A stretch of 64,000 nucleotides of DNA from Alphaproteobacteria bacterium (GTDB taxonomy: Bacteria; Pseudomonadota; Alphaproteobacteria; Rs-D84), in assembly GCA_017642585.1 (NCBI GenBank), contig JAGCOR010000019.1, forward strand, positions 9,197-73,196, written 5' to 3'. The translations under genes and the position numbers were made by a program. Under the pieces are notes generated by a model that was not told the DNA's origin, did no database searches, and was given only the letters and a program-made list of their open reading frames with translations. The stretch's first letter is position 1, and every line of letters starts with the position of its first letter. Shown piece by piece: positions 101 to 40,574 of this stretch.

Positions 101-508
101 TTAATCGATAATATATATTCTGCGGTTATTTGCAAAACGTCTTTGGTTTCTTTGTTCTTGACGAACAATAGCGTGTTTCAATATTTTTTTAGCTGTTCTT
201 TTAACAAAAGATGCGCTGGCATCTGGATATGTATTTTGCAATTCAATCATTGTTTGGGCCAAGAAACGTTTTTGATTACATTTTTTATACAAATTAATTT
301 CATTGGAAATTTGTTCTTGAACCTGGGTTAATTCAACCAAACTGATTTCATCATCAGAAAACAAAAAACAATTCCAATTCAATTTTCTGCGTGCCCAAGG
401 AAACAAATTGTAAAACACATCCATGTTATCATACGCCGTTTGAGTATGGCGGATTTTTGCAATTTGTTGGTTCTTTTTATAATTTTCGTCATAACTTAAA
501 CACATCAT
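101..508 (-). CDS. hypothetical protein, 135 aa, no recognisable domain
   Basis: Intact ORF. An AAAGGGG Shine-Dalgarno-like run lies about 6 nt upstream of the ATG pair at 503-508. The shared palindrome (589-603) plus a TAATAT -10 box lie upstream in the gene's orientation. Confidence 0.5.
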   Translation of the reverse strand: MMCLSYDENYKKNQQIAKIRHTQTAYDNMDVFYNLFPWARRKLNWNCFLFSDDEISLVELTQVQEQISNEINLYKKCNQKRFLAQTMIELQNTYPDASASFVKRTAKKILKHAIVRQEQRNQRRFANNRRIYIID

Positions 509-588: not shown

Positions 589-603
589 GGACAAAATTGG
601 TCC
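589..603 (-). promoter_or_regulatory. Palindromic promoter-associated motif, site 1 (minus strand reads GGACCAATTTTGTCC, then 11 nt, then TAATAT)
   Basis: Read directly. The + strand is GGACAAAATTGGTCC. The same 15-mer recurs at 5878, 6839 and 7319, each time with the same spacing to a -10-like hexamer. Confidence 0.6.
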
Positions 604-688
604 ACTACCCCCAAACCACGTGCTTTATGGGTTGTATAAGCAATTTTTTTGTGTTATAACATAATGAAAAGACCCAAAGGACACCCAT

Positions 689-3600
689 ATGACAGATATA
701 AACAAACAATTATTTACCGCCGTCATTGAAAATAACTCTATTCAAGATATAAAAAAATTATTAGATAATGGGGCGGACGTTAATACAAAAAATGAAGAAC
801 AAGAAACACCTTTGTTCTATGTACAAAATGCAGAAACCACAAAATTTTTGGTTGATAATGGCGCAGATATTAACGCAAAAAATATATACGGACATACACC
901 CGCACTTGTAGCATTAAGCAACGAACGTCCAGGTGTTGCAAAAACTTTAATTGAAATGGGTGCAGACGTCAAAGCAACTGACAATTCTGGTAATACTTTG
1001 TTGCATTTTGCACCATCATTGGATATCGCCGAATTATTAATAAAATTGGGCGCAGATGTTAACGCAAAAACAGAAAGCAATGTAACACCTTTGCATTATG
1101 CAGCAAATGCAGATATTGCTAAACTTTTGATAGACCATGGTGCAGATGTAAATGCAAAAGACGATTTTGGGTTGACACCTTTGTTCACAAATTATGATCC
1201 TGATGCAACCAAGACAAAAATATTGATTGCTAACGGTGCAGAGATAGATGCCACAGATGTGGCGGGCGACACACCTTTGCGTCATACAGACAATATAAAT
1301 GTCGCAAAAGTGTTAATTGAACATGGCGCAAAGGTAAATATGAAAAACAATAATGGATCAACCGTATTACATAACAACTATGACCCTGAACTTGTTCAAT
1401 TTTTAATTGATAACGGCGCAGAGATAGATGCAACGGATAACCTGGGGCAAACACCGTTGCATGTTGCACCAAACGCGGCGGTCGCCCAGGTGTTAATTGA
1501 TAACGGCGCAGATATAAACGCACGCGATGCCAATGGTGCCACCCCACTTCATTGTATTGCATCCCAGACTGGTGACGGGATTGCAGATATAGTACGCGTT
1601 TTGATTAAAAATGGTGCAGAGATAGATGCAAGACGAAAATCATGGCAAGAGGCGTTACAAGATTCTGGTGAATTATGCAATATATCTGGCCCAACCCCTT
1701 TGTTTGATGTACAAAACCCAGATGTTGCACAACTGTTAATTGACAATGGTGCGGATATAAACGCAAAAGACGAAGAAGGCTTCACACCTTTACTTGTCAC
1801 ACAAGATGAAAAAATTGCCAAATTGTTAATTGATAACGGCGCGGATATTTATGTTGAAAGCGATAAAGGTTGCACCGCACTGCACAAGGCACAAAGTATA
1901 GATATCGCTAAATTCTTAATTGATAAAGGACTGGATGTTAATACAGAATGGGAATATCAGGGACCCCCCCTGTGTTGCACAACCGATCTGGAAATTGCTA
2001 AATTGTTAATTGACAATGGTGCAAACATAAATCAAACAGACAAAGATTCATTCGTCCCATTATTTCTTGTAAAAACCCCAGAAATACAGCAATTATTGAT
2101 TGACCGCGGGGCAGATATACATGTTAAATTGGGGGATTTTACCGCTTTACATCATGCAAAAAGTGTACAAATTGCACAATATTTAATAGATGCAGGTTTG
2201 GATGTTAATGCATTGGCTTTCAATAATTATACGCCTTTGGTTTGTACAAACGATATTGAAATTGCAAAACTATTAATTAAAAATGGCGCGAACCCAAATT
2301 TAGAAAATGACAGTGGCGAAACACCTTTGTTTAATGTAACCACCCCAGAAATATGTCAGTTATTAATTGATAATGGTGCGGATATTAATAAAACAAACAT
2401 ACACGATGAAACACCTTTGGCATATCATTCAAGAGGTGGGGACCTTGATGACAATATCGAAATTATCAGGGTGTTAGTTGAAAACGGTGCAAATATACCC
2501 ACACAACCTGTTTTCAATTATCTGTTTGACCCTAAGATTATGCAACTGTTAATCGATGCTGGGACAGATGTTAATGCAAAAAACGACTATGGCGAAACCC
2601 CTTTGTTTTATGCACAAAATTCCCAGATTGCCCAGGTGTTAATTGACAACGGGGCAGATATTAATGCGACAAACAACTGCGGGGCAACGCCATTACTTTA
2701 TCAAAACAAGGCCGATATAAGAAAATTGTTAATTAATAATGGTGCCAATGTAAACGTGAAAGACAAGGATGGTGATACACCATTGCTTTGTGCCAAAGAT
2801 GCAGAAGAAGAACAGATGTTAATTGACCGCGGTGCAGATATTCATGCAATGAATCATGATGGAAAAAACGCCCTGCATAACGTTCACTGTGTTGAAATCG
2901 CCAAATTATTAATTGATAACGGGGTAGATGTTAATGCAACTGATAACGCTGGCAGAACCCCATTACATTATGCTAAAAGCGAAGAAATTGCAAAATTGTT
3001 AATTGATAATGGGGCAAAGATAGACATAAAAGATAATTATGGTGAAACACCGTTGCACAGAGCATCTATAACAGATGTTACTGCATGTTTAATCAAAAAT
3101 GGCGCAGATGTTAATGCAACAAATAACTTTGGGGAAACACCATTGCATGATGTACCAAATACCCAGATTGCACAATTGTTGATAGATCATGGTGCAGATG
3201 TAAATGCAAAAGCCCATAATGGCGACACACCTTTACACCTATCTAATTTTATGAGCGTAAGATGGGATAGAGCTTATTTCAAAGATAATATTACGCAAGT
3301 TTTAATAAACAACGGTGCGGATGTTAACGCAAAAAATAACGAAGGTGAAACACCTTTGTTTACAATAGACAACATAGAAACGGCAAAATTATTAGTCGAA
3401 CATGGTGCAAATATAAACGCAAAAGATAACTATGGAAACACCCCATTACATACAAGCCACGACTATGATACATTGAAATATTTAATAGAATGTGGTGCCG
3501 ATGTAAACGCAAAAAACAATAATGGCGACACCCCTTTGCATTTGTATATAGACAAAGATAGACTTCCCAATAAAATAGAATTATTGATTGAACATGGGGC

Positions 3601-4555
3601 AGATGTAAACGAACAAAACAATGATGGTGATACGCCGTTGCATCGCGCCTACTCTGCTGGCACTATAAACCTGTTGATAAAACACGGTGCAAATGTAAAC
3701 ATCAAAAACAAAAACGGTTGTACACCTTTGCATTATGCATACGATATTGCATGTGCCAGATTGTTGATTGAACACGGTGCAGAGGCAGATACAAAAGACA
3801 ACAACGGACTGTCACCACTGTTTTACACGCAAGAATTTGAAATATTAACCCCACCAAACGTAGAAAATAACAATCGTTTGGCTAAATTAGAAGAATTTTT
3901 GGTCGATAATGGTGCCGATATCCATGGCACACATACGGATGGTGGAACCTTGTTACACTCTATTCACAGTGTTAAAATTGCAAAAATGCTAATTGACCAA
4001 GGTTTTGATGTAAACGCACGAAACGAATATGGTAATACACCTATATTTTGCACAAACAACGTCAAGATTGTGAAATTATTCATTGAACACGGGGCAGATG
4101 TTAATGTTAAAAATAGTTATGGTAATACACCACTGATGGGTCAGGACATTTTTGACATTGCAAAACTTTTGATTGAACACGGGGCAGATGTTAACGCCAC
4201 AAACAACAAAGGTAGAACACCTTTGCATTGCGTCTATAATAAAAACGTCGCCCAATTATTGATTGATAATGGTGCCAAGATAGATGTAAAAGATAACAAT
4301 GGAAATACGCCTTTACATGCGTTAAATACCCCAGAAATGGTACAGTTTTTGATTGAACACGGCGCGAATGTAAACGCCAGAAACAATCAAGGTAAAACCC
4401 CACTGCATTGTTGTGAATGGGGCGAAGATATTGCAAAAATATTGGTTGATAACGGTGCGGATATAAATGCCAAAGATAATGACGGCAAAACGCCTTTGGA
4501 TACAGTGGAAGATCCGGATATAAAAAAATATCTGCAATCTATCGGCGCAAAATAA
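689..4555 (+). CDS. giant ankyrin-repeat protein, 1288 aa, about 40 tandem ANK units
   Basis: By my count about 40 consecutive 32-33 aa units with the consensus (A/V)xLLIxxGA(D/N)(V/I)Nxx(D/N)xxGxTPL(H/F). AAAGGA lies 7 nt before the ATG. The antisense ORFs inside it are repeat artefacts. Confidence 0.95.
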   Translation: MTDINKQLFTAVIENNSIQDIKKLLDNGADVNTKNEEQETPLFYVQNAETTKFLVDNGADINAKNIYGHTPALVALSNERPGVAKTLIEMGADVKATDNSGNTLLHFAPSLDIAELLIKLGADVNAKTESNVTPLHYAANADIAKLLIDHGADVNAKDDFGLTPLFTNYDPDATKTKILIANGAEIDATDVAGDTPLRHTDNINVAKVLIEHGAKVNMKNNNGSTVLHNNYDPELVQFLIDNGAEIDATDNLGQTPLHVAPNAAVAQVLIDNGADINARDANGATPLHCIASQTGDGIADIVRVLIKNGAEIDARRKSWQEALQDSGELCNISGPTPLFDVQNPDVAQLLIDNGADINAKDEEGFTPLLVTQDEKIAKLLIDNGADIYVESDKGCTALHKAQSIDIAKFLIDKGLDVNTEWEYQGPPLCCTTDLEIAKLLIDNGANINQTDKDSFVPLFLVKTPEIQQLLIDRGADIHVKLGDFTALHHAKSVQIAQYLIDAGLDVNALAFNNYTPLVCTNDIEIAKLLIKNGANPNLENDSGETPLFNVTTPEICQLLIDNGADINKTNIHDETPLAYHSRGGDLDDNIEIIRVLVENGANIPTQPVFNYLFDPKIMQLLIDAGTDVNAKNDYGETPLFYAQNSQIAQVLIDNGADINATNNCGATPLLYQNKADIRKLLINNGANVNVKDKDGDTPLLCAKDAEEEQMLIDRGADIHAMNHDGKNALHNVHCVEIAKLLIDNGVDVNATDNAGRTPLHYAKSEEIAKLLIDNGAKIDIKDNYGETPLHRASITDVTACLIKNGADVNATNNFGETPLHDVPNTQIAQLLIDHGADVNAKAHNGDTPLHLSNFMSVRWDRAYFKDNITQVLINNGADVNAKNNEGETPLFTIDNIETAKLLVEHGANINAKDNYGNTPLHTSHDYDTLKYLIECGADVNAKNNNGDTPLHLYIDKDRLPNKIELLIEHGADVNEQNNDGDTPLHRAYSAGTINLLIKHGANVNIKNKNGCTPLHYAYDIACARLLIEHGAEADTKDNNGLSPLFYTQEFEILTPPNVENNNRLAKLEEFLVDNGADIHGTHTDGGTLLHSIHSVKIAKMLIDQGFDVNARNEYGNTPIFCTNNVKIVKLFIEHGADVNVKNSYGNTPLMGQDIFDIAKLLIEHGADVNATNNKGRTPLHCVYNKNVAQLLIDNGAKIDVKDNNGNTPLHALNTPEMVQFLIEHGANVNARNNQGKTPLHCCEWGEDIAKILVDNGADINAKDNDGKTPLDTVEDPDIKKYLQSIGAK

Positions 4556-4567
4556 TATTGTAAAAAA

Positions 4568-4585
4568 ATAACCCGATCGGGTTAT
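4568..4585. terminator. bidirectional rho-independent terminator between convergent genes
   Basis: Perfect palindrome ATAACCCGATCGGGTTAT, flanked by an A-run on the left and a T-run on the right. Confidence 0.7.
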
Positions 4586-4607
4586 TTTTTTATGTCTGTT
4601 TTATCTG

Positions 4608-5831
4608 TTATTTTTCAGATTTATTGTCAGCAAACATTTTTGCCACGGTTGGACTTTTTCTGGTCAGTCTTTTGATTGTCAATTCTTCCACTTTGTTGTT
4701 TGCTTTGTCCAAATTACTGCCAGAACCAATCAAGGCTTCTTTGACTTTTTGTAACCGTTTTATACTGTTATCTATTTCTTGGATTGCATCTGTAAATTTA
4801 GTTTGGGCCAATTTGTATTGTCTGCCAAACCCTGCCTTGAATTCTTCTACTTCTTGTTCAAACTTTGTTACATCTATATTGGTTTGTCTGTATTCAGCAA
4901 TCTGTTTTTTGTATTCTGCATTCTTGGCCGCAGCATTTCGCAACAATGTTATCATAGGAATAAAGAATTGCGGACGAATAACATACATTTTGTCATATCT
5001 GTGTGATACATCTACAATGCCGTTATTGTACAAATCATTGTCAGATTCCAACATAGAAACCAAAACTGCATATTCGCAATTTTTCAAACGTCTGTCTTTG
5101 TCTAATTCAGCAAAGAAATCTTCGTTTTTATGTTTTGATGCGGTTAAATCTGCTTCATTTTTCATTTCAAACATCACAGAAACGGTTTCCACGCCATCTA
5201 CATAATCGCGGAAGATAAAATCGCCCTTGGATCCGCGTTTGTCGCCCTCTTCTTTGACAACTTCATTGTCTTTTTCAAAGTAAGCATTAGGAAACGCAGC
5301 AGAACGTATTTTATTAAATTCGTTCAAACAATGTTGTTCCAAAGATTCCCCAATCATTTTAGTGGACATCTTGGCCTTCATGTCTTTATAGAATGCGATT
5401 TCTTCATCTTTCATTTTAATTTTAATATCGTATTCACTTTGCAAATTGCGTTTTTGTAATTCAGAATCTGCAGCAATCATTTTCAAATTGTTTTCCAATT
5501 CTGCAATTTTTTTGTCTTTTTCAAACAAATCTTCTTTGGTTTTATTTTGGGCTTCAATAACCGCAATTTGTTTGTCTTTTTCACTGGCATCCAGACGGGC
5601 TTTGAATGCATCAATTTGTTTTTGCAAATCTAACAAAGATTGTTCTTTGTCTTGCTTGGCCTGCATTTGCATCAATTTGATTTCGTTTTCCATCTGGGTT
5701 TGATGCTGATGAATTTGATCAGCCACGGCCTTTTCAAATTCGGCATTTCTGATTTGACTTACAATTTCTGCATATCCAGATTCATCTACTGTGAATACTG
5801 TTCCGCATTTTGGGCATTTGATTTCGCGCAT
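4608..5831 (-). CDS. DUF2130-like protein: N-terminal Zn-ribbon, coiled-coil, C-terminal PD-(D/E)XK-like nuclease core
   Basis: CPKCG at the N-terminus and a long E/K/Q-rich heptad-like middle. GDFIFRD...VMFEMKNE fits the D...ExK pattern. Start set to the MREIKCPKCG ATG at 5831 (AAAGGA RBS), because the longer ORF to 5945 would overlap the upstream gene. Confidence 0.75.
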   Translation of the reverse strand: MREIKCPKCGTVFTVDESGYAEIVSQIRNAEFEKAVADQIHQHQTQMENEIKLMQMQAKQDKEQSLLDLQKQIDAFKARLDASEKDKQIAVIEAQNKTKEDLFEKDKKIAELENNLKMIAADSELQKRNLQSEYDIKIKMKDEEIAFYKDMKAKMSTKMIGESLEQHCLNEFNKIRSAAFPNAYFEKDNEVVKEEGDKRGSKGDFIFRDYVDGVETVSVMFEMKNEADLTASKHKNEDFFAELDKDRRLKNCEYAVLVSMLESDNDLYNNGIVDVSHRYDKMYVIRPQFFIPMITLLRNAAAKNAEYKKQIAEYRQTNIDVTKFEQEVEEFKAGFGRQYKLAQTKFTDAIQEIDNSIKRLQKVKEALIGSGSNLDKANNKVEELTIKRLTRKSPTVAKMFADNKSEK

Positions 5832-5877
5832 ATTTAATCCTTTTGTTGTTATGCGATTGTAATTATAATGGGGTAGC

Positions 5878-5892
5878 GGACAAAATTGGTCC
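5878..5892 (-). promoter_or_regulatory. Palindromic promoter-associated motif, site 2 (minus strand GGACCAATTTTGTCC, then 10 nt, then TATAAT)
   Basis: Read directly. It lies 47 nt upstream of the DUF2130-like start codon. The arms extend to GCGGAC...GTCCGC. Confidence 0.6.
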
Positions 5893-5901
5893 GCAGCCTT
5901 T

Positions 5902-6792
5902 TTAAATTGCAACATGAATACGAATTGGTGTCCGCCCCGCATCACTTAACAGCATATCGCCACACGGCAACAACAATTCAGCACCACATTCCCCTAACAA
6001 ACACTTTGATTCAGCATTTGTTTTTGTTTTCAATGCTATCCATGTTGTTAAATTTGCTTTGATTATCCCTGTTATAACAGATTTATCGATATGTTGGGTA
6101 GCCATAATTAAATGCACACCAACACCACGACCATAGGACGCAATAAATTGGACGATTTTTTCCATACTCTTTTTATTTGTAGCGATTAAATCTGCAAATT
6201 CATCAACCATAACTATGATACGGCCAATTTTATTTTTATCAGATTTTTTACAGTTTTTACGTCTGTGGTCGATAATTTCACAAATTTCCTGTAATTTAAT
6301 AATTGCTTTATTTATATCAACAATAACTTCCCTGAATCCATTGTTGTTACATTTTGCAAAATCAACACCTTTGGTATCCATGATCACAATGGAATCTTGT
6401 GGTTTATGATTATGAAGCACAGATTCATATATTGTTTTTAACAGTTCTGTTTTTCCAGATCCTGTTTTTCCACCAATTAATATATGCCCTATTTTATCTA
6501 AATCTCTTACCACTGGATTTCCAAAAACATCTACACCCAACACAACAGGCAATTCATATTTAGATTGCAAAAATTCTTTGGTTTTCAGCAATTTTTTCAA
6601 ATCTGGCAATTCTTGATTTTTATTTGGCATTTCCAATATAATCGAATTAGATTTTGGACAATATTCGGCATAACAGCCCATTTTATTTGCCAATTTCATA
6701 TAATCGCTGTATCGTTCGCCCGGTTTAATATTATAAACAAAGTTTGTAACACGAGGACCGCTGATACATACATTTTCGTTTATTTTAACCAT
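5902..6792 (-). CDS. stand-alone FtsK/SpoIIIE-type ATPase (motor alpha/beta domains only)
   Basis: Walker A GGKTGSGKT, Walker B IIVMVDEFADL, then HLIMATQH and ITGIIKANL, all colinear with the FtsK motor. There is no TM segment and no gamma domain. AGGAG RBS. Confidence 0.8.
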   Translation of the reverse strand: MVKINENVCISGPRVTNFVYNIKPGERYSDYMKLANKMGCYAEYCPKSNSIILEMPNKNQELPDLKKLLKTKEFLQSKYELPVVLGVDVFGNPVVRDLDKIGHILIGGKTGSGKTELLKTIYESVLHNHKPQDSIVIMDTKGVDFAKCNNNGFREVIVDINKAIIKLQEICEIIDHRRKNCKKSDKNKIGRIIVMVDEFADLIATNKKSMEKIVQFIASYGRGVGVHLIMATQHIDKSVITGIIKANLTTWIALKTKTNAESKCLLGECGAELLLPCGDMLLSDAGRTPIRIHVAI

Positions 6793-6838
6793 TTTTATCT
6801 CCTGTGGTTTTGTTTACACACATATTACAATTATCACG

Positions 6839-6853
6839 GGACAAAATCGGTCC
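6839..6853 (-). promoter_or_regulatory. Palindromic promoter-associated motif, site 3 (minus strand GGACCGATTTTGTCC, then 11 nt, then TAATAT)
   Basis: Read directly. One substitution relative to sites 1 and 2. It lies 47 nt upstream of the FtsK-like start codon. Confidence 0.55.
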
Positions 6854-6884
6854 ACCAAAATTTAATTCATATATTTAATTTATA

Positions 6885-7244
6885 TTATCTTATTATTATG
6901 TGTTTGAACCATTGTTCCTGGAACGCGATTTTTTCTTCGATTTGTTCATCTGAAAAATTTTTCCCCTGTGGAACAACTATCAATTTGTCATCATCGTCAT
7001 TTGTTCTGTGAACAACAGCAATACAAACACCATCGAATTCTTGTTTTGCTTCATCAACCCCTAAAACATAGGCATCCAATTCTTCGCCATCACCAGACAC
7101 AGTATTTGGTACAAAACCATAATTTACAGTATATATAAAACCGAATTTTGGATGTTTTGTTCCCAAAGGTCTGTCCATTTTTACATGAATTGGTTTACCT
7201 ATTAAATTATATGGAAATAATGATTTATCAACTGTTTCAGACAT
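6885..7244 (-). CDS. small inorganic-pyrophosphatase-like protein, 119 aa
   Basis: DRPLGTKHP and GDGEELDAYVLG resemble the family I PPase acidic signature D-x-(D/E)-x-x-D. It is much shorter than canonical PPases. AAGGGAG RBS. Confidence 0.55.
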   Translation of the reverse strand: MSETVDKSLFPYNLIGKPIHVKMDRPLGTKHPKFGFIYTVNYGFVPNTVSGDGEELDAYVLGVDEAKQEFDGVCIAVVHRTNDDDDKLIVVPQGKNFSDEQIEEKIAFQEQWFKHIIIR

Positions 7245-7318
7245 TGCGCGCTCCCTTTTTTCGAAATATAAACCACGAAATTTGCGATTTCAACTTATTT
7301 AATTACAAAAATTTTATT

Positions 7319-7333
7319 GGACCAATTTTGTCT
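7319..7333 (+). promoter_or_regulatory. Palindromic promoter-associated motif, site 4 (+ strand GGACCAATTTTGTCT, then 11 nt, then TACAAT)
   Basis: Read directly, 14 of 15 match. It lies in the divergent region between the PPase-like gene and the MBL gene, oriented toward the MBL gene. Confidence 0.55.
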
Positions 7334-7391
7334 ATAAACATATATACAATGAAAATGAAAAAAACAAAAATTTGAAAAAAAAGAGTCGAAA

Positions 7392-8636
7392 ATGAAAATA
7401 TGTGTATATCGTGGAACAAATGAAATTGGTGGTAACTGTATAGAAATATCTACAAATAAAACCCGTATTTTATTAGATATTGGAACACCATTATCATCAA
7501 TGAATGAAAAGAACCCGCTGGAAACCTATAAAAATTCATGTTGTGGTGTATATAAAGAGGACACCCCAACCATAGATGCAATTTTTATCAGTCACACCCA
7601 TCGCGATCATTATGGTTTATTGCCAATAATAAATGCAAAAATACCTGTGTATATGTCAAAAATTACACATGATATTTTAACCAAAATAGAACCTTTGTTG
7701 CCTGATGATTTTGATGTTTCTAATTTAGATATTCATGAAATTGATTCAAAACAAACAATTAAAATCAAAGATTTAAAAATCACTGCTTTTGCAGTAGACC
7801 ACATCCCAGGCGCAATGGCATATGAAATAACAGACGGCAAAAAACGCATTGTTTACACTGGCGATTTCAGATTTCATTCAAATCAAAAATGGAAATCATG
7901 GGCTTTGGCAGATTTAGCCAACAATCCGGATTATTTGATAATGGAAGGAACCCGCCTGTCGCGCACCGAAGACATCGAAAAATATAACACGGAAAATTCT
8001 GTTTATCGTGCAATTACAAAATTATTGCTTAATTCACACAATATCGCATTTGCCAGTTTTTCTTCACAAAATCTGGACAGATTGGTTTCTTTTATCAAGG
8101 CCAGTATCGCATCAAATCGCACTTTAGTAATTGATCCATATACCGCCGCTTTGATGGATGTGTTTAATAATGTGTTTCCAACTGTCCCGACTGTTGATAT
8201 GTTACCAAACATCAAAATATATTTTGGCACCAGTGAATCTATCGCAACAAAAATGAAAAAAAACGGTTTGTTTTATAAACACAAAAACAAGAAAATTACC
8301 AAGGAAGAAATATTGGCGAATCCCCACAATTTCATTTTAAAGCATAACAAGAAATTAACAGATTGGTTGTTAAAGAAAGGTGTTGATAATTATGATTTTG
8401 TTTATTCTATGTGGCATGGATATCTGGATTCGCAAAACACATGGGATGAATACAAAGAACATATAACAGAAATTCACACATCGGGGCATGCGGATGTTGC
8501 TAATTTACAAAAATTTGTAAAACGCATCAAACCCAAAACAATCATCCCCGTTCATACTGAATGTAAAAATGATTTCAAAGAAAAATTTAATATCAACACA
8601 TTGGTATTAAATGATAACGAACCCATGAAATTATAG
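7392..8636 (+). CDS. MBL-fold metallo-hydrolase of the beta-CASP nuclease type
   Basis: HTHRDHYG (HxHxDH motif). DFRFHS and a late HTSGHA resemble beta-CASP motifs. Confidence 0.75.
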   Translation: MKICVYRGTNEIGGNCIEISTNKTRILLDIGTPLSSMNEKNPLETYKNSCCGVYKEDTPTIDAIFISHTHRDHYGLLPIINAKIPVYMSKITHDILTKIEPLLPDDFDVSNLDIHEIDSKQTIKIKDLKITAFAVDHIPGAMAYEITDGKKRIVYTGDFRFHSNQKWKSWALADLANNPDYLIMEGTRLSRTEDIEKYNTENSVYRAITKLLLNSHNIAFASFSSQNLDRLVSFIKASIASNRTLVIDPYTAALMDVFNNVFPTVPTVDMLPNIKIYFGTSESIATKMKKNGLFYKHKNKKITKEEILANPHNFILKHNKKLTDWLLKKGVDNYDFVYSMWHGYLDSQNTWDEYKEHITEIHTSGHADVANLQKFVKRIKPKTIIPVHTECKNDFKEKFNINTLVLNDNEPMKL

Positions 8637-8645: not shown

Positions 8646-9371
8646 ATGTCAGAAAACAAAGAAAATCCAAAACCGAGAACCGGCGAATTAACCAACATCA
8701 TCAACAGCAAAAATCTGGATGCTTTGCGTGAATACCTGAACAACACACCACGTGATATAGTTATGAAAAAAGACGAAAACGGACGTGATGCGTTATACGA
8801 TGCGGTATTTACTGGTGATGTAAAAATTATTGATGCTTTAATAACATATGGTTTTGATCCCATGAACATAGACAAATTAACCGGGGCCACGGCTTTGCAT
8901 CTGTCTGCTTCAGAAGCACATTTTGATGCAGTGGTATTGTTGTCGGATGTGTTAAGGTTGAATACAAACGCCACAGACAACGATGGCTTTACACCACTGT
9001 ATTATGCATTTATGTTTTTAATAAATGAAGATGGTTCAATCAGTGAACCACATTTAGATGCCGCATGGGCTTTGGTCAGGAACGGTGCAAAATTTCAACC
9101 AAAAATGTTAGGCTTGTTACCGGAAATTGAACAATTACATATTGCCCTTATCAAAGATATTCATGTCATCATGCGCAAAAACCGCCAAACCTGTTTAAAA
9201 TATGTACCAAATATGATCAAATTTTTACAAGATTCGTTAAATACATATTCTGACTTTTGCAAACGAACCGAGGGTAAATCTGACGAAGAAATAGAAAAGA
9301 TTATTCAAACCAATTTCATGTCAGATACCCTAAATAAACCCACAAAAAATTTAGATTTTCTGTGGAAATAA
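8646..9371 (+). CDS. ankyrin-repeat protein, 241 aa
   Basis: Three to four ANK-like units (GRDALYDAV..., GATALHLSA..., DGFTPLYYA...). It starts 9 nt after the MBL stop codon, so probably shares an operon with it. Confidence 0.7.
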   Translation: MSENKENPKPRTGELTNIINSKNLDALREYLNNTPRDIVMKKDENGRDALYDAVFTGDVKIIDALITYGFDPMNIDKLTGATALHLSASEAHFDAVVLLSDVLRLNTNATDNDGFTPLYYAFMFLINEDGSISEPHLDAAWALVRNGAKFQPKMLGLLPEIEQLHIALIKDIHVIMRKNRQTCLKYVPNMIKFLQDSLNTYSDFCKRTEGKSDEEIEKIIQTNFMSDTLNKPTKNLDFLWK

Positions 9372-10939: not shown

Positions 10940-12721
10940 TTATTTATTATCTTTTGGTAATAATACAGCCTTGATTCTTCTGACACCTGCAGAACTGGAT
11001 TCTTCTTTCAATATTTTGAAAGTTCCCAATTCTCCAGTATTATTAGCATGAGGTCCGCCACAAATTTCATGTGACCATTTACCCATTTTGTAAACTTTAA
11101 CCACTTCGCCATATTTATCACCAAACACACCGATTGCACCGGAAGCGCGCGCTTCTTCAATAGGCATTTCAGTGCATTCAATTGGAACATTTTCAGCGAT
11201 GGCCTGGTTCACTTGTTTTTCCACTTCTGCCAATTCTGCTGGTTCTATACGTCTGTCAAAAGACACATCAAAACGCAAACGTTCAGGTGTAATATTTGAA
11301 CCCTTTTGCATAACTGAATCGCCCAAAATACGACGCAACGCAGCCAACATTAAATGCGCCGCAGTGTGTAAACGTCTGGTTTCAATAGAATCATCAGACA
11401 AACCACCTTTGAATTTTTGTTCTGCACCCGCGCGAGATTTTTCCTGGTGTTCTGCGAACAATTTATGAAATCCTTCTGCGTCTACTTTGACCCCGTATTC
11501 ATTTGCCAATTCTTGTGTGAATTCCAATGGGAAACCAAATGTATCGTACAATCTAAACGTATCAGCCGCAGCCAATTGATTGTCTGTTACATTTTCCAAA
11601 TATTTTTTCGCAATCTTCATCCCAGATTCCAAAGTGCGTGAGAAAATTTCTTCTTCACGATCCAAAGATTTGATAACAAATTCACGATTGCGTTCCAATT
11701 CAGGATATATATCTTTGTAATGTTCAATAACCACCTTGGCAATTTCAACCATAGAATGTGCCGGTGCATTCATTTGTGTCAAATAGCGATATGCACGACG
11801 GATTAAACGACGCAAGATATAACCTTGGTCTACATTAGATGGAACAATACCGCGATTATCACCCATAACAAAAGTTGATGCACGCAAATGATCCGCGATA
11901 ATGCGATATGCCTTGTAATGTTCAGGTTCATATTTTGTTCCGGTCAATTCGCTGATTTTATCAATAATAGGTTTGAATAATTCTGTGTCATAAACACTGG
12001 AAACACCGTTCACAAAACAAAAAGCACGTTCAAATCCCAAACCGGTATCAACATTGTGGCGACCCAAACTGGTATAATTACCATCTTTGTCTTTGTGATA
12101 TTCCATAAACACATTGTTCCAAATTTCAACATATTTACCACAATTACATGCAGGCCCACAATTTGGTCCACAATCTGGTTGATCGTGGATATAGAAAATT
12201 TCAGTATCAGGTCCACAAGGTCCAGTTGTTCCCGCAGGTCCCCACCAATTTTCTTTTTTACCATAAAAGAATATGCGTTCTTTTGGATAACCCAAACTTT
12301 CCCAAATTTGTGCAGATTCTGTATCGCGTGGTGCAGATTCATCGCCAGCAAAACAAGTAACAGCAATTTTTTCCTGGGGGATTTTTAAAACCTGGGTTAA
12401 AAATTCATGTGAAAAACCAATAGATTCTTTTTTGAAATAATCATTCAAAGACCAATTTCCCAACATTTCAAAAAATGTTAAATGGGTGGCATCGCCTACT
12501 TCATCAATATCACCAGTGCGCAGGCATTTTTGACAACTGACCAAACGTTTTCCCAATGGGTGTGATTCCCCCATCAAATAAGGCACCAAAGGATGCATTC
12601 CCGCAGTTGTAAATAAAACCGAAGGGTCGTTTTCTGGTATCAAAGATGCGGAAGCAATTTCATGGTGTCCACGTTTTACAAAGAAATCTATATAAAGCCT
12701 ACGTAATTCATTTGCTGTCAT
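10940..12721 (-). CDS. alaS: alanine--tRNA ligase, short form lacking the C-Ala domain
   Basis: The N-terminus LRRLYIDFFVKRGHHEIASASLIP...LFTTAGM is typical of AlaRS. Editing-domain motifs HTAAHL and CGGPH are present, and the protein ends about 35 aa after the latter. Alternative start at 12739. Confidence 0.9.
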   Translation of the reverse strand: MTANELRRLYIDFFVKRGHHEIASASLIPENDPSVLFTTAGMHPLVPYLMGESHPLGKRLVSCQKCLRTGDIDEVGDATHLTFFEMLGNWSLNDYFKKESIGFSHEFLTQVLKIPQEKIAVTCFAGDESAPRDTESAQIWESLGYPKERIFFYGKKENWWGPAGTTGPCGPDTEIFYIHDQPDCGPNCGPACNCGKYVEIWNNVFMEYHKDKDGNYTSLGRHNVDTGLGFERAFCFVNGVSSVYDTELFKPIIDKISELTGTKYEPEHYKAYRIIADHLRASTFVMGDNRGIVPSNVDQGYILRRLIRRAYRYLTQMNAPAHSMVEIAKVVIEHYKDIYPELERNREFVIKSLDREEEIFSRTLESGMKIAKKYLENVTDNQLAAADTFRLYDTFGFPLEFTQELANEYGVKVDAEGFHKLFAEHQEKSRAGAEQKFKGGLSDDSIETRRLHTAAHLMLAALRRILGDSVMQKGSNITPERLRFDVSFDRRIEPAELAEVEKQVNQAIAENVPIECTEMPIEEARASGAIGVFGDKYGEVVKVYKMGKWSHEICGGPHANNTGELGTFKILKEESSSAGVRRIKAVLLPKDNK

Positions 12722-12840
12722 TTTTTTTGCCTTTAACATTAAAAATTTTGTCGTTTTTTATGTGTGGTATTCTAAACACTCTTTTGATTAAAGTCAATAA
12801 AATACACATATTTATTGCTATATTTGAAACAATAAAAAAA

Positions 12841-24747: not shown

Positions 24748-25878
24748 TTATTCACCCAACAACCCTAAACACTCTAACACAAAATCAGCCATGGTTCGTG
24801 CCACGGGTATTGTTACCGCATTACCAAACAGTTTATACTTTGCACTGTCTGTAAGATTTTCTGGGAAAGAAAACATATCTTTTCGGCCTTTTTTAAACCC
24901 GTAATTTACAAATCCTTGCAACTTTCCCCATTCATTCGGTGTCATCATTCTAATATTTTTGTTGTTTATAGGAGACTTCTTCAACATAGCTTCCTGCCCA
25001 GCATACTTCTTACCGTTTTGCACATCCAACACCAAGTTCCTTTCTTTACCAGACCCACCTGTTGCCAAAATAGTATTTGCGATTGGATTAGGAATGTCTG
25101 GTGTATTCACGATTCTATAACCAAAACCATGCCCCTTCTTTTTTTCCCTTTCTGCATGTTTTTCTAAGGTTTTCAAATATCCAGAAGACAAAAAATATTT
25201 TGGCTCAACTTCTTTATCTAGCAAATCGTTTAAAGATTTATACAAATGAATGTGCTTGTTCTCTGATGGTGTAGATGTTGGCAAATTCTTTATCTTTGAT
25301 TTATAACGACGTTTGTCAAAAGCTATCATATAGACGCGTGGGCGATTTTGTGGCACCCCGAAATTTTTAGAATTTCTAATAAAATCCTTGGAGTTGAAAA
25401 TAGGTTCACCAGTTTTTGGGTCCAAAGCAGCCCCAACAACGTGGTAACCCAATTCTTGTATCAACGTCTTTAAAATTGTTTTAAAAGTATTGCCTTTATC
25501 GTGTGTTAACAGATTATCAACATTTTCCAAAACCAGACATTTTGGACGCCGTTTCATACCCTTTATAATGTCGCGAATTGCAAAAAATATGATTCCTTTT
25601 TCCTCGTCTTTAAACCCAGCTTTCTTCCCAGCACGGCTAAAGGTCTGACAAGGGAATCCAGCCGCTAAAACATCACAATCAAGGTTCTTCGTTTTTTTCT
25701 TGAAAGCTTCCGAAGTTAAGTCATTGGTAGGATCTTCACCATATAGATGTTTATACGCAGCACAAGCATTGGGTTCTATTTCCGCAGACAACACATTGTG
25801 AAAGTGTCCTGTCATCTCAAATCCGTGCCGAATTCCCCCAATTCCAGCACATAAGTCCATAATCGTAAAAACAGACAT
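24748..25878 (-). CDS. dcm: DNA (cytosine-5)-methyltransferase
   Basis: Motifs in canonical order: DLCAGIGG (I), GFPCQTFS (IV), ENVDNL (VI), QNRPRVYM (VIII), GNAVTIPV (X). Confidence 0.92.
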   Translation of the reverse strand: MSVFTIMDLCAGIGGIRHGFEMTGHFHNVLSAEIEPNACAAYKHLYGEDPTNDLTSEAFKKKTKNLDCDVLAAGFPCQTFSRAGKKAGFKDEEKGIIFFAIRDIIKGMKRRPKCLVLENVDNLLTHDKGNTFKTILKTLIQELGYHVVGAALDPKTGEPIFNSKDFIRNSKNFGVPQNRPRVYMIAFDKRRYKSKIKNLPTSTPSENKHIHLYKSLNDLLDKEVEPKYFLSSGYLKTLEKHAEREKKKGHGFGYRIVNTPDIPNPIANTILATGGSGKERNLVLDVQNGKKYAGQEAMLKKSPINNKNIRMMTPNEWGKLQGFVNYGFKKGRKDMFSFPENLTDSAKYKLFGNAVTIPVARTMADFVLECLGLLGE

Positions 25879-25896
25879 AAATTTCTTCCTCTTGCT

Positions 25897-28014
25897 TTAA
25901 GAGAACTTTACATCATGTTCCTGGGCAAGGCAATACAATTTTTGCAATATTCTTGCTTGTTTATCGCTTGGCACCGCTATTCGACCATTTGCCATAGAGG
26001 TTAATACACCATATTCTGTAATACCTTTCTCATCACTTAATAGTTCCCTGTGTTTTGTATAAAAAGTTAACAACACTCGCCAATGTTCAGGAGGAATATT
26101 AACAACAAAAACCGTTGCTTCCATTCCGTTAACCATTTTTGCTTCTTTACGGGCTGCTTTCTTATCAGTTTTCTGTGTTTCTTCACTAACAGATATCTCA
26201 TCTAACACGTCTGCAGGCAAATCCAAATCTATTTTGGAAATATCATTCTCCCATAGTCCCTTCATTTTGAATTTTTCTCGCCAATCCGCTGGATTTGGGT
26301 AATGGTCCAACATAAAACGTCTGACGGCTTTTATTGAGATATCTATTGCCTTTTCAAACGGCTTATGAATACCCTGTCTCGTCCAAACAAATTCAAAATC
26401 AAGAAAACGACCTTTTGATAAAACATATTTGTTTAACAAACCTAAAGCATATGCTTTATATTCTGATTTTACAGAACGGTTTTCTTTATACCAATCTGTA
26501 TCAGCAATCATTTCATCAGTCTTTTTCGCTAATATAACTTTTGCTATCAATTCATGAAAATAATTATCGTTTATCGAGGATTCGTCTTGTTCTATTTTCT
26601 TCTCTACATTATCAGCAAAGTATGCGAATGCCAATTGTTGTTTATTAGCTATATACGGTGCCCCCTGGAAAATCGCCTCTGTTTTTGCCAATATGATTTT
26701 ATCTATCTTTTGTTCTTTAGGGTTAAAACGTTGAAATTCATTCTTTTCGCTTTGCGTCTTACCACAATCCACTTCGTACTGACCACGAGTTCGTTCATAA
26801 TACCATCTCGTTTTATTTTGTTTTCCATCAACTGATGGTGTCCATATTCTTTGTGATATTTCCTTGAACTTCTTATGGAACTCGCTGTTTGAGAAGAAAT
26901 CGGATTCTTTAACAGGATTTTGTGTGTTTGCAAATCTGGCAACTTTTTCTACAAAATCTGAATATTTATCTCCGTCTTCTACTACAGATAATTTCATCTG
27001 TACGGAAACATTCGTTAGATCTTTTTTACTTTCCCATGCTGTATGAATAACATTTGTCGTCTGTCCCCCATTAACGATTTGAAAACCTCTTGCTGATTGC
27101 AAATACAAGTCGTCTCCTTCCCTCTTAAATTTAGGTTCAGAAGCTGTACAGGTTAAACCATTATTATATGCAAAAAAACGTTCTGGTGCTTCCTCGATAG
27201 TGATTAACATCCCTTTATTAATTTTCTTTTTTAACTGCAAAAATGTGCGCACATTTTGCTCTAGCAACTTTTGACCAAATTCTTCGTATATTTTAGCTAA
27301 TGTTTCTGCTGGCATTATAGCAAGATACGACATATAGTCTGCACAGCCTTCACAAATAGCTGGCAAACACTTTAGGCCTTTATGGTCTTTTGTCGTTTCA
27401 CAAAAATCCACTTCCAAGTCTTCAAATGATGTTTCTGATGTTTTGATCTGAAAAATTCTGTTAATGTCGAAAATTTTAAAAGAGTATCTTTCTTCGTCCA
27501 TTCCTTTGAGAGTAATTTTTGCATCTTTTTTGTTCAGTGTTCTGGTAATTAATCCATTGGTTAGCAACATAAATTCTACAGTTCTGGCACGCGGAAAATT
27601 ATCGAAAATCTCTTTGGCGACCAATGCTGCTGGATCTGTGGCCTCCATCTCAACAAACAATGGTTTTTCTGGATCCGTGGCAAGTTCTAAGAAATTTCTA
27701 AGTGCTTTGAATTTACGCTCATAAATTTCTTTTGTAACAGTTTGAATTTCATCGGTATTAAAGAAATCACACCCAATCAAAGTAAGTAATTTTCGATCCT
27801 CATCCCATGCACACCCAGAAATTTCGAAATTTTTATTTGGGGTTTTGGCTTCCCAAAAACCTAATATCGGATCCGTTATATCCGCATCTTGCATTAAATA
27901 TATTGATATATATTCCAAAAATTTATCTGACAACGTGCCATCACTTGCAACAAAATTGCCCCGGACCGTTTCCAATACATCTTGGTACATATCTTGTAAT
28001 GTTATGCTCGCCAT
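25897..28014 (-). CDS. AIPR (abortive-infection phage-resistance) family protein
   Basis: Size is about 700 aa. The central QIVNGGQTT motif is recalled as characteristic of AIPR proteins. The operon context with Z1, HATPase and Dcm also fits. Confidence 0.65.
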   Translation of the reverse strand: MASITLQDMYQDVLETVRGNFVASDGTLSDKFLEYISIYLMQDADITDPILGFWEAKTPNKNFEISGCAWDEDRKLLTLIGCDFFNTDEIQTVTKEIYERKFKALRNFLELATDPEKPLFVEMEATDPAALVAKEIFDNFPRARTVEFMLLTNGLITRTLNKKDAKITLKGMDEERYSFKIFDINRIFQIKTSETSFEDLEVDFCETTKDHKGLKCLPAICEGCADYMSYLAIMPAETLAKIYEEFGQKLLEQNVRTFLQLKKKINKGMLITIEEAPERFFAYNNGLTCTASEPKFKREGDDLYLQSARGFQIVNGGQTTNVIHTAWESKKDLTNVSVQMKLSVVEDGDKYSDFVEKVARFANTQNPVKESDFFSNSEFHKKFKEISQRIWTPSVDGKQNKTRWYYERTRGQYEVDCGKTQSEKNEFQRFNPKEQKIDKIILAKTEAIFQGAPYIANKQQLAFAYFADNVEKKIEQDESSINDNYFHELIAKVILAKKTDEMIADTDWYKENRSVKSEYKAYALGLLNKYVLSKGRFLDFEFVWTRQGIHKPFEKAIDISIKAVRRFMLDHYPNPADWREKFKMKGLWENDISKIDLDLPADVLDEISVSEETQKTDKKAARKEAKMVNGMEATVFVVNIPPEHWRVLLTFYTKHRELLSDEKGITEYGVLTSMANGRIAVPSDKQARILQKLYCLAQEHDVKFS

Positions 28015-28016
28015 TT

Positions 28017-28940
28017 TTATTTCCCTTTGTTAAATGTGCACAGAAAATCCGTTATAGAATCTAGCTTCAGTTTATATTTTACGTTCAGTATTCCAGAAGG
28101 AATATTGCTAGAAATTATCCGTGGAAAACCTGATACCACTTGGTAATACTTCACACCCACATCCTCAAACTGTATAAGATTACTGCAAGGTGCCATGATA
28201 TTAAAATTCAACGATAACAATTTTCTTTCAAATCGTGCTCTTAATTCAGCATCATCACCAAAACATCCTGTAATCACTTGATTGGCCATATCTAAAATTG
28301 TTTGTCCCGAATTTTTACCTTCAACAAATTCATATACTACGAGTAATAAATCCTTTGAATCAACCGCTTCTAATTGATTCTCGTTTGATATGGATATCGT
28401 TTCGTCGTCACTAGTTCTTGCTTTGATTTCATATAAATTTTTCGAAAAAACGAAGTCGTGCGGATTTCCGTCTGGTCCTAACCACGCATCTAACACCTCT
28501 TCTGGAGAGATTTTTATAGACACCAAAAATTTAAAGAACTGTAATTCTCCCATCAGTCCCATCTGTTTTCTAAAATCCATTGTATTCTTTTTTATTGCCG
28601 ACCAAAAATATACCCATTGTTCTAACCGGTTAGAAATATTATTGATATACTTCTGCTCAGGTTCTACTTTTGGTACCTCCGCTAAATCTTGACATAAACG
28701 CGTAAAGATTTCTTTATTAGAACTATCTTTTAATAAAAGCACAAATTGAACCAACCCCAAGCGTTTACGTTCAAAGATAGTTATACCATTAAGCTTCAAC
28801 TGTTTTTCTCGAAACTGTGTATGTGGTGTAGTTTCGATTACGAAAGAAAGTTCGCCATCAGAAGACTTTTCTATAAGCAATGGCAAGTTTTCATCAATTC
28901 TTCTATATGCACCCTTTTGTATCGTATCAAAATCAACCAT
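28017..28940 (-). CDS. PD-(D/E)XK motif nuclease-fold protein
   Basis: GNPHDFVF...LYEIKAR fits PD...ExK. The gene is tightly packed in the operon (2-nt gap downstream, 8-nt overlap upstream). Confidence 0.6.
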   Translation of the reverse strand: MVDFDTIQKGAYRRIDENLPLLIEKSSDGELSFVIETTPHTQFREKQLKLNGITIFERKRLGLVQFVLLLKDSSNKEIFTRLCQDLAEVPKVEPEQKYINNISNRLEQWVYFWSAIKKNTMDFRKQMGLMGELQFFKFLVSIKISPEEVLDAWLGPDGNPHDFVFSKNLYEIKARTSDDETISISNENQLEAVDSKDLLLVVYEFVEGKNSGQTILDMANQVITGCFGDDAELRARFERKLLSLNFNIMAPCSNLIQFEDVGVKYYQVVSGFPRIISSNIPSGILNVKYKLKLDSITDFLCTFNKGK

Positions 28941-34155: not shown

Positions 34156-34232
34156 TTTAGTCCTTTTTTGCAAAATATAACTTGATTTATGTAGAAAGAC
34201 AAGCCCAAATACAAAACAAAAAAGGATTAAAC

Positions 34233-39720: not shown

Positions 39721-39731
39721 ATCAAACCTTT

Positions 39732-39766
39732 TATTCGGTAATATTATACAAAATAAATACCGAATA
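39732..39766. promoter_or_regulatory. 9-bp inverted repeat immediately upstream of fic
   Basis: TATTCGGTA (39732-39740) and TACCGAATA (39758-39766) are separated by 17 nt. The repeat begins 12 nt from the fic start codon. Confidence 0.35.
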
Positions 39767-39878
39767 TGCAAGTTGAAAAGATTGATGTGCAGATGTTGTT
39801 TTTTTGTGCCAATCTCTTGAATTTTGATGTTTTTACACTAGATAATTAGTATGACAAAATTCATACAAGGATGATCGC

Positions 39879-40574
39879 GTGGCAATCGATATTGTAAAAT
39901 CATATTCAGAAAATATTAAGGGCTGCAAAGTTTGTTTTGTACATGCCAAGTTGTCAAACATCAATGAAATAGCAATAAAAGTTCACGATGATATTATGGA
40001 TACATCATGGTTGTCGAAATTGAAACCCTTGCCAAAAATAGCATATGAACAACGTGCTAAGGATACAATAAAAAGTATTGTTGAAAATATCTTAAATAAA
40101 GTTACAAATAGTGTTACTGAAGACCTTGGAGAACTTATAGTATCTACACAAGGACAGTCTTTATTAGAACAAAAACATGACCACAGAAAATTGCCACTTG
40201 CTGAATTATGGAAAGAAAAAGATCGTGGTAATCCTGGGTTCGATTTTCATACAGAAAGCCCAACCAATTATATCACTTTTGGAGAAGCAAAATATAATAG
40301 TAATCAAACGGCATATGGTAAGGCATTAACACAAATAAACAACTTTATTGATAAAGGGAAGGATAAAAAAGAAATGTCTGATCTGGAACATTTCACTACA
40401 GAAAAAGCACAAGCAAATTTTCTTTTGCCAACAGGAAAAGCTTTTGCTGCGGCTTTCTCTGTTCATTCAGACGCCCCAGATACCATATTCAAGAATATAA
40501 AAAAATGTGATAAATTTAAAGAATTATTAAAGTACCCCGAATTATATTTAATAGGAATCCAAATTGTTAATTAA
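39879..40574 (+). CDS. hamA: HamA-like (DUF1837-type) protein with a D...ExK motif
   Basis: GTG start with AAGGA 8 nt upstream. GFDFHTE...FGEAKYNS fits D...ExK. It is translationally coupled to the downstream helicase (11-nt overlap). Confidence 0.5.
   Translation: MAIDIVKSYSENIKGCKVCFVHAKLSNINEIAIKVHDDIMDTSWLSKLKPLPKIAYEQRAKDTIKSIVENILNKVTNSVTEDLGELIVSTQGQSLLEQKHDHRKLPLAELWKEKDRGNPGFDFHTESPTNYITFGEAKYNSNQTAYGKALTQINNFIDKGKDKKEMSDLEHFTTEKAQANFLLPTGKAFAAAFSVHSDAPDTIFKNIKKCDKFKELLKYPELYLIGIQIVN

Follow-up and report, generated by a model that had tools for sequence, protein, structure and literature searches.

Here, we describe a set of promoters that share one operator-like element in a 64,000-nucleotide stretch of DNA (hereafter, the window) from an uncultured Alphaproteobacteria bacterium (GenBank assembly GCA_017642585.1, contig JAGCOR010000019.1, positions 9,197 to 73,196 of the forward strand). 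Five promoters, four in the window and one about 3.8 kb to its left, carry a 15-bp near-palindrome, GGACC(A/G)ATTTTGTC(C/T), at 10 or 11 nt from a −10 box. The box is conserved with this geometry upstream of the same genes in genomes of about ten gut Alphaproteobacteria, and it adjoins a gene whose product, a WYL-domain protein, is similar to the activator DriD of Caulobacter crescentus. Judging from sequence, from a structure model of the regulator, and from analogy with characterized systems, the 15-mer is probably the operator of a DriD-like homodimeric activator encoded to the left of the window, with a winged helix-turn-helix (wHTH), a three-helix bundle (3HB), a WYL domain, and a WCX domain. 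Most likely, the promoter type itself is the known one of the WYL activators DriD, PafBC, and SiwR, and what is new is a distinct box and an uncharacterized regulon in an uncultured gut alphaproteobacterial lineage.

The window is a segment of a bacterial chromosome (~35% GC) with genes for alanyl-tRNA synthetase (AlaRS), tyrosyl-tRNA synthetase (TyrRS), an ABC-F protein, transketolase, Lgt, and three tRNAs. The near-palindrome occurs in it four times, at the coordinates, on the strands, and at the distances from the −10 boxes that an earlier note on this DNA had given. Site 1 (GGACCAATTTTGTCC, an exact match; positions 589 to 603, minus strand) lies in the promoter of orf135 and is followed after 11 nt by TAATAT (572 to 577). 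Site 2, the same 15-mer (5878 to 5892, minus strand), forms part of the promoter of a DUF2130 gene. It sits in the 70-nt gap past the stop codon of an FtsK-like gene, and its −10 box, TATAAT (5862 to 5867), follows after 10 nt. Site 3 (GGACCGATTTTGTCC; 6839 to 6853, minus strand) belongs to the promoter of that FtsK/HerA-like ATPase gene, with TAATAT (6822 to 6827) at 11 nt. Site 4 (GGACCAATTTTGTCT; 7319 to 7333, plus strand) belongs to the promoter of an operon for a metallo-beta-lactamase (MBL) nuclease and an ankyrin-repeat (ANK) protein, with TACAAT (7345 to 7350) at 11 nt. All four −10 boxes, read from the sequence, are on the same strand as their sites.

The dyad comprises GGAC-N7-GTCC plus two more complementary pairs, so that six of seven arm pairs are self-complementary, the same count as in the earlier note. 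The sole asymmetric pair, C5 versus T11, has a constant orientation to the −10 box in all sites. A scan of the window with GGACCRATTTTGTCY, allowing up to two mismatches, gave exactly these four matches, which extends to the whole window the earlier remark that the full motif was seen in no other intergenic region inspected. Dinucleotide-preserving shuffles (n = 100) gave a mean of 0.6 matches, and none of the 100 reached four. With three mismatches permitted, just two more matches appeared in the window, both intragenic, which is the level expected by chance. An Rfam search of the motif region found nothing.

We find that the motif promoters differ from the housekeeping promoters around them. 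Those examined have no recognizable −35 hexamer and no consistent extended −10 box. In the −35 register, which corresponds to positions 4 to 9 of the 15-mer, they read CCAATT or CCGATT, with one of six matches to TTGACA. The housekeeping promoters of the window (those of the three tRNA genes, AlaRS, TyrRS, and Lgt) have TTGNNA −35 boxes with 16- to 18-nt spacers. The gene for a PPase-like protein of 119 aa (6885 to 7244, minus strand), the divergent neighbor of site 4, likewise has its own canonical promoter, TTGAAA-17-TATATT, at 7265 to 7293. Since the housekeeping and PPase-like promoters have TTGNNA, the missing −35 box is specific to the motif promoters, which argues for activator dependence.

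Two genes diverge from motif sites in the window: the PPase-like gene and a gene for a 1288-aa protein made up almost wholly of ankyrin repeats (689 to 4555, plus strand). Neither has a TAnnnT box at 10 to 11 nt in its own direction. Site 4 had been proposed to be shared with the PPase-like gene; given the gene's own canonical promoter and the precedent of DriD, which activates in one direction only, this proposal is not supported, and the PPase-like gene is probably not a regulon member.

The fifth promoter and the candidate regulator lie outside the window. The sequence of the window is also present on metagenome contigs in ENA, and one of these, scaffold_99 of ERZ28653429 (locus L007; 1 mismatch in 10,508 nt), reaches 10 kb past the left edge. 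Site 5, again GGACCAATTTTGTCC with a −10 box, TAGTAT, at 11 nt, stands at L007 14343 to 14357, upstream of a gene for a Cdc48/PAN-like double AAA+ ATPase of 698 aa. Thus, the four promoters that were originally grouped together are all real, but the cluster numbers five. Site 5 sits in the 179 bp that separate the AAA+ gene from a divergently oriented gene for a wHTH-WYL-WCX regulator of 347 aa (L007 13215 to 14258, which is 2.7 to 3.75 kb left of window position 1). In the reverse orientation, the site lacks a suitably spaced −10 box, and the WYL gene is served by a separate promoter, TTGCAC-17-TATCAT, which lies further downstream and outside the box. In the earlier note, orf135 was the only candidate regulator; the WYL gene, which lies 2.7 kb beyond the left edge of the window, could not be seen there. 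We find instead that orf135 is a conserved target and that the likeliest regulator is the WYL protein. The WYL gene heads an operon (L007 10574 to 14258) that continues with a 440-aa protein without assigned function and a YegD-like Hsp70-type ATPase. The pairing of WYL and Hsp70-like genes recurs at L089 10001 to 12478, with a homologue at 43% identity.

The box and its −10 element are conserved in related genomes. We scanned GTDB, taking one genome per species, with the pattern GGACCRATTTTGTCY-N10/11-TAnnnT. The scan matched 78 stretches; a uniform-composition model expects roughly 140 chance matches in 596 Gb. About 24 of the 78 fall in about nine metagenome-assembled genomes (MAGs) named “Alphaproteobacteria bacterium” from horse, sheep, buffalo, and rumen, while the remaining ~54 are scattered and lie mostly inside long open reading frames. 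In tblastn searches, the loci of the gut MAGs encode orthologues of the proteins of the window and of L007, with the box upstream of the same genes. Amino acid identities are 32 to 40% for the WYL regulator (84% in the closest MAG, Horse_feces296), 43 to 57% for the AAA+ ATPase, 47 to 57% for the DUF2130 protein, 46% for the FtsK-like ATPase, 55% for the MBL nuclease, and 42% for orf135. The flanking DNA is not conserved, while the box and the −10 box are kept in genomes whose proteins have diverged to 32 to 57% identity. These relatives came from the DNA-pattern scan; a search for related loci in GTDB genomes with the FtsK-like protein gave nothing usable.

Each window site has counterparts. 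Orthologues of orf135 (L085 and L036; orthologues at 96% and 42% identity to orf135) have the site 1 box upstream, and orf135 is absent from several genomes that retain the motif. In L085 and L036, the counterpart of site 2 precedes DUF2130 orthologues; in L037 and L051, it precedes a 185-aa gene, with DUF2130 next in line. For site 3, the box precedes FtsK-like orthologues in L016 and, as CGACCATATTTGTCT, in L036. For site 4, it precedes MBL orthologues in L016; in L042 and L068, a small gene stands between the box and the MBL gene. The layout of WYL gene, site, and AAA+ gene is present in every related genome examined, including those at 32 to 44% protein identity. More distant WYL homologues, found through a protein database (40 to 61% identity), have variants of the form AGACC or CGACC ... 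TTGTCC/A before a divergent AAA+ gene.

Among 31 non-identical sites, GAC-N7-GTC is invariant (31 of 31), and the spacer C(A/G)(A/T)(T/A)TTT is CAATTTT or a one-base variant of it. Between box and −10 element, 29 sites have 11 nt and the other two have 10 nt. Eleven of the 15 motif positions, along with the T, A, and T of the −10 box, carry ~2 bits of information; the remaining flanking columns stay mostly below 0.5 bits and never exceed 1.0.

The regulon appears to be small. The earlier note reasoned that a genome scan with the motif at hundreds of unrelated promoters would speak for a general promoter element. The whole MAG of the closest relative has only six strict sites: five correspond to this island, and one precedes a gene for a 63-aa repeat protein. 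The motif is therefore the mark of a small regulon, not of promoters in general. In other MAGs, the targets are on different contigs or far apart, a scatter more in keeping with a dispersed regulon than with one mobile cassette. The view that the 15-mer is an operator for a dimeric HTH protein at the −35 position, dedicated to a few genes, is thus supported by every computational test available.

The regulator resembles DriD in sequence and in predicted fold. Its PADLOC match to WYL has an E-value of 5e-17. Against the PDB, all sequence matches are to Caulobacter DriD, with E-values of 1e-15 when the single sequence was the query and 2.4e-25 when a profile of 12 homologues was used. A Foldseek search with an AlphaFold2 (AF2) model ranked DriD (1e-17) ahead of PafBC (1e-11) and of CapW and BrxR (~1e-7). 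In the model, helices at residues 6 to 21, 26 to 40, and 57 to 70 and a beta-hairpin at 75 to 86 form a wHTH, which is followed by a helical bundle, an Sm-like WYL domain, and WCX. The WCX match is present in the homologues P0002 and P0003, and the alignment of the regulator with DriD spans WCX to residue 339. By sequence and model, the protein thus has the wHTH, WYL, and WCX domains of the PafBC/DriD/SiwR/BrxR superfamily.

Some of the residues predicted to contact DNA and ligand are also shared. In the profile alignment, K/R58, T59, V60, x, and R62 of the regulator fall onto R37-T38-A39-E40-R41 of DriD, and this (K/R)-T-V-x-R recognition-helix motif is invariant across the clade. The DriD-DNA crystal structure has R37 and R41 making bidentate contacts to the two conserved guanines of each G-x-C half-site (PMC10853764). 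Among the residues with which DriD contacts single-stranded DNA (ssDNA), the equivalents of Y168, Y192, R204, and Y240 are kept; D-Y205-L of the regulator aligns to N-Y192-L of DriD, and Y205 is invariant. We also looked for covariation between the equivalent of DriD E40 (Y, Q, H, K, D, E, or N) and box position 1 (G, A, or C). It was suggestive in one genome (E with CGAC), inconsistent, and left unused.

The box has the architecture described for DriD sites. In the latter, ATACGAC(X)7GTCGTAT, only G2, C4, G12, C14, and an AT-rich center are conserved (PMC10853764). They overlap the absent −35 position, and their distance from the −10 box is constant throughout the regulated promoters; in a didA construct with an “optimized −35,” TTGACA begins at the C of GAC (PMC13004042). 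This register, with its 17-nt spacer, is exactly that of 15-mer positions 4 to 9 here. Activation by DriD is confined to the operon that diverges from its own gene, with no autoregulation, and the WYL and AAA+ genes here are arranged in the same divergent way. DriD is also the best sequence and fold match of the regulator, is a homodimer of wHTH-3HB-WYL-WCX type, and reads a GxC-N7-GxC pseudo-palindrome with an AT-rich spacer; its pair of basic residues at i and i+4 of the recognition helix is kept as Arg/Lys. There are, however, differences. The box here is GGACC-N5-TGTCC, against aCGAC-N7-GTCGt for DriD, with G, A, or C at the outer position where DriD sites have C, and the E40 equivalent varies in this regulator family. 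Whereas the DriD targets are didA, bapE, recJ, dnaG, and CCNA_03891/01149, none of didA, bapE, recJ, and dnaG is among the targets found here. The host, too, differs from C. crescentus in being an AT-rich, uncultured gut alphaproteobacterium.

Two actinobacterial systems offer further parallels. PafBC of mycobacteria, which acts at RecA-NDp promoters by sigma adaptation, has the promoter motif tGTCgg(N10)tA(N3)T (PMC8635444). Its GTC-N12-TAnnnT compares with GTC-N11/12-TAnnnT here; both promoter types are hybrids with a canonical −10 box, no −35 box, and GTC at about −26. PafBC is also a WYL/WCX regulator whose guanines are read by two arginines at i and i+4. However, it is a heterodimer on an asymmetric single half-site, with one HTH placed on sigma region 4, whereas the dyad here implies that both HTHs of a homodimer contact DNA. 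PafBC controls a large regulon (most DNA damage–induced genes), compared with about five to six promoters here. In Mycobacterium smegmatis, the WYL activator SiwR acts as a homodimer on an imperfect palindrome that lies between the −35 and −10 positions of the divergent neighboring operon, and it responds to genotoxic stress (PMC10693628). Like the present case, it has a small, local regulon, but its palindrome is 19 bp long and of another sequence, its targets are of the DinB superfamily, and it is actinobacterial.

On this basis, we propose how the promoters might work. Each wHTH of the WYL dimer would read one GAC/GTC half-site through its (K/R)-T-V-x-R helix, and the AT-rich 7-bp spacer would be read indirectly. 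The dimer would cover about −38 to −24, the place of the missing −35 box, with the promoter-proximal GTC near −26. Once activated, it would recruit sigma70-type RNA polymerase to promoters in which a good −10 box stands without a −35 box, and transcription would run in one direction, toward the side that bears the −10 box. We infer that the WYL protein binds the sites, and that it activates instead of repressing. The trigger would be a ligand of nucleic-acid nature, probably ssDNA that arises through DNA damage, phage attack, or invading DNA; by analogy with DriD and PafBC, ssDNA could be bound between the WYL and WCX domains. The regulon would comprise the double AAA+ operon, orf135, the DUF2130 protein, the FtsK/HerA-like ATPase, and the beta-CASP MBL nuclease with its ankyrin protein, a gene set that looks like a nucleic acid–directed stress or defense response.

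Several observations weigh against an activator of the DriD kind. The regulator exceeds the Pfam cut-off for WYL (PF13280) only marginally (23.8 versus 21.8 bits) and falls just under that for WCX (PF25583; 23.5 versus 23.9 bits). Its identity to DriD is ~23%, too low to establish orthology. The equivalents of the DriD residues R176 and R178 are not kept, and that of R207 is kept only partly. The AF2 model is only moderate (mean pLDDT, the predicted local distance difference test, 72; predicted template-modeling score, pTM, 0.37), and its global TM-scores to DriD are ~0.3. A phmmer search of the PDB with the N-terminal 106 residues gave spurious helical-repeat matches only, so the profile of 12 homologues was needed to reach the recognition helix of DriD. 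Conservation of the −10 box is in part circular, since most related sites were retrieved with a pattern that demanded one. Rescans of the same loci without this requirement found no additional boxes and none that lacked a −10 box, which indicates that the association is not merely a selection effect. Lastly, some WYL regulators repress: BrxR and CapW are wHTH-WYL-WCX repressors of defense loci (PMC9122601).

The last point leads to the strongest alternative, namely that the WYL protein binds the sites as a BrxR- or CapW-like repressor, occluding RNA polymerase at −35 and keeping a defense island silent until a phage or DNA damage signal arrives. BrxR and CapW are of the same domain family, bind inverted repeats as dimers, control local gene islands, and appear among the fold matches. 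Partial PADLOC matches occur within the regulon (the AAA+ ATPase to IetA; the FtsK-like ATPase to the C-terminal region of SspH and to mad8), and a restriction-like cluster is found elsewhere in the window. Yet we consider this alternative unlikely. The motif promoters lack a −35 box or a consistent extended −10 box that could be repressed, while housekeeping promoters have −35 boxes, and their geometry differs by no more than 1 nt from the one seen with the activators DriD and PafBC. The BrxR box consists of 11-bp repeats separated by 5 bp, and the boxes of these repressors lie at or downstream of the promoter; the box here is upstream of the −10 box, and the promoter of the WYL gene is outside it. 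DriD and PafBC are ahead of BrxR and CapW by 6 to 10 orders of E-value. Across the window and the L007 flank, PADLOC detected no complete known defense system, BREX and CBASS included, and its partial matches were generic P-loop or AAA matches only. The location of the targets on different contigs in other genomes also looks more like that of a stress regulon.

A second alternative is that another protein binds the motif and the WYL gene is a bystander. Candidates would be orf135, the 440-aa protein cotranscribed with the WYL gene, or a factor encoded elsewhere, and the first two do lack an assigned function. This is quite improbable. The WYL gene adjoins a site in every genome examined, however diverged, and the exact 15-mer also stands beside unrelated WYL regulators in three other genera. 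GxC-N7-GxC is what recognition helices of the DriD type read, and the residues concerned are conserved. For its part, orf135 is itself driven by the box and is missing from several genomes that have the motif.

It is very improbable that the 15-mer is an element for an alternative sigma factor, either sigma-54 (−24/−12) or an extracytoplasmic function (ECF) sigma factor (−35/−10). In our reading of the sequence, GG...TTG of the motif is superficially like the sigma-54 consensus TGGCAC-N5-TTGC. However, the offset from GG to TTG is 9 and not the strict 10 of sigma-54, TGTC replaces TTGC, and GT replaces the GC of the −12 element, while GAC and GTC are only 7 nt apart, too close for the −35 and −10 elements of an ECF promoter. 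Both readings were rejected on this spacing. Furthermore, a sigma70-type TAnnnT is kept at a fixed 10 to 11 nt, the dyad symmetry suits a dimer, and no gene for a sigma factor or an enhancer-binding protein is linked to the sites. Finally, there is next to no chance that the motif is a repeat without a regulatory role, be it a terminator hairpin, a recombination site, or a mobile-element remnant: site 2 does extend to a 6-bp stem, GCGGAC...GTCCGC, that a scan flagged as terminator-like on the plus strand, but this is the wrong strand, no plus-strand gene ends there, and no T-run follows the stem in the direction of the gene, while the other sites form 4-bp stems only, the flanks have no conserved sequence, and each of the 31 sites lies between genes, faces one of them, and has a −10 box after it.

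If the 15-mer is the operator of a DriD-like WYL activator, the mode of activation known from DriD and PafBC, with the activator at −26 to −35 of a −35-less promoter, would extend to an AT-rich, uncultured gut lineage, where box and regulon are legible directly from sequence. The DUF2130 protein, orf135, the double AAA+ ATPase, the FtsK-like ATPase, and the beta-CASP nuclease would be tied to one inducible circuit, which makes a role in DNA repair or defense testable. The bipartite signature of GGACCAATTTTGTCC, 11 nt, and TAnnnT could then be a practical predictor of WYL regulons in metagenomes. More tentatively, the five promoters might represent an undescribed, SOS-independent response of uncultured gut Alphaproteobacteria to ssDNA, DNA damage, or invading DNA, with effectors that are almost all uncharacterized. 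Such a response would provide the first functional context for the AAA+ family (always paired with WYL), for the DUF2130, FtsK/HerA-like, and beta-CASP families, and for the 56- to 63-aa families.

The box also occurs beside other WYL genes. In three genera, the exact 15-mer, followed after 11 nt by TAGTCT or TAGACT, lies ~24 nt from divergent HTH_11-WYL-WCX genes and points away from them. These are Streptomyces sp. NK08204 (69% GC; L077 3241 to 3255), Pelomonas sp. V22 (L063 1941 to 1955), and Paucibacter sp. KBW04 (L083 4317 to 4331). By tblastn, the WYL regulators of these three have no detectable similarity to the 347-aa regulator. That unrelated WYL regulators of Actinobacteria and Betaproteobacteria have an identical GGACC-N5-TGTCC next to them may point to an operator/promoter code common to many WYL proteins. 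In Pelomonas, the target of the box is a LysE-type exporter.

Copies of the 15-mer with a −10 box that are conserved across species were also seen in Sutcliffiella/Bacillus (L018, L020, L023, L069, L072, and L081), Dactylosporangium (L022, L033, L074, and L087), Blastomonas (L014 and L080), and Ktedonobacteraceae (L059 and L075). At least those of Sutcliffiella/Bacillus and Ktedonobacteraceae are apparently intergenic; in the high-GC genomes, the long open frames over the site are uninformative. An AT-rich 15-mer is unlikely to occur by chance in Dactylosporangium, at 70 to 74% GC. A hidden Markov model search of the 8-kb loci around the Bacillaceae, Dactylosporangium, Blastomonas, and Ktedonobacteraceae copies found no WYL proteins.

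Most of the regulon genes can be placed in broad families; none of the regulon proteins has an NCBIfam equivalog. orf135 (101 to 508, minus strand) has a weak, sub-threshold Pfam match to DUF2293. The DUF2130 protein (Pfam PF09903, E 3.8e-83; 4608 to 5831, minus strand; 407 aa from the ATG at 5831) consists of an N-terminal Zn-ribbon-like and coiled-coil region and a C-terminal domain of the PD-(D/E)XK superfamily, in which DUF2130 has been listed (PMC3424549). In a strain-level variant, ERZ27256942 (L003 10851 to 12124; L009 4628 to 5901), this gene is called in two parts (132 and 290 aa); the locus is otherwise identical, and the split probably reflects a frameshift or a pseudogene. The FtsK/SpoIIIE-HerA-like P-loop ATPase (Pfam PF01580, E 3.5e-22; 296 aa) is encoded at 5902 to 6792, minus strand.

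The beta-CASP-type MBL nuclease (7392 to 8636, plus strand; 414 aa) has the Pfam domains Lactamase_B_2 and RMMBL and partial NCBIfam matches to the RNase J and aCPSF1 families. The gene for the ankyrin-repeat protein assigned by Pfam (8646 to 9371, plus strand; 241 aa) begins 9 nt past the MBL gene and is probably cotranscribed with it; the same MBL and ANK layout is repeated in L091. Together with the 1288-aa protein, the region has two ankyrin proteins, which is unusual for a free-living bacterium and may reflect an association with a eukaryotic host or protist.

Further box-driven genes occur in the relatives. At L089 1 to 9946, the genes that come after a box-driven double AAA+ gene, all in its direction, encode a 70-aa protein and then RecC_N and UvrD-helicase proteins (RecBCD/AddAB-like), which suggests a link of the AAA+ gene to DNA-end processing. 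The box-driven 63-aa protein of the closest relative (L030 5545 to 5736) contains two RGNW(V/I)YVYDE repeats. In three more distant genomes (L013, L071, and L092), the box drives a 56-aa protein that begins MATC(T/S)A(W/Y)KIIFN.

Elsewhere in the window, a five-gene cluster on the minus strand (24748 to 33143) encodes a C5 cytosine methylase, an AIPR protein, a DUF4420 protein (PD-(D/E)XK), a Z1 domain protein, and a HATPase_c_3 protein. It is followed by genes for a serine recombinase (34182 to 35822), a Fic protein (38719 to 39771), and a DEAD-box helicase (40564 to 42912), and by tRNA-Ser (44749 to 44838). The region from 24748 to 44838 looks like an integrated restriction/defense island beside a tRNA gene, and it contains no copy of the motif. 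The AlaRS of the window (10940 to 12739, minus strand) has only 599 aa, comprising the catalytic core and the SAD domain; typical bacterial AlaRS proteins are longer.

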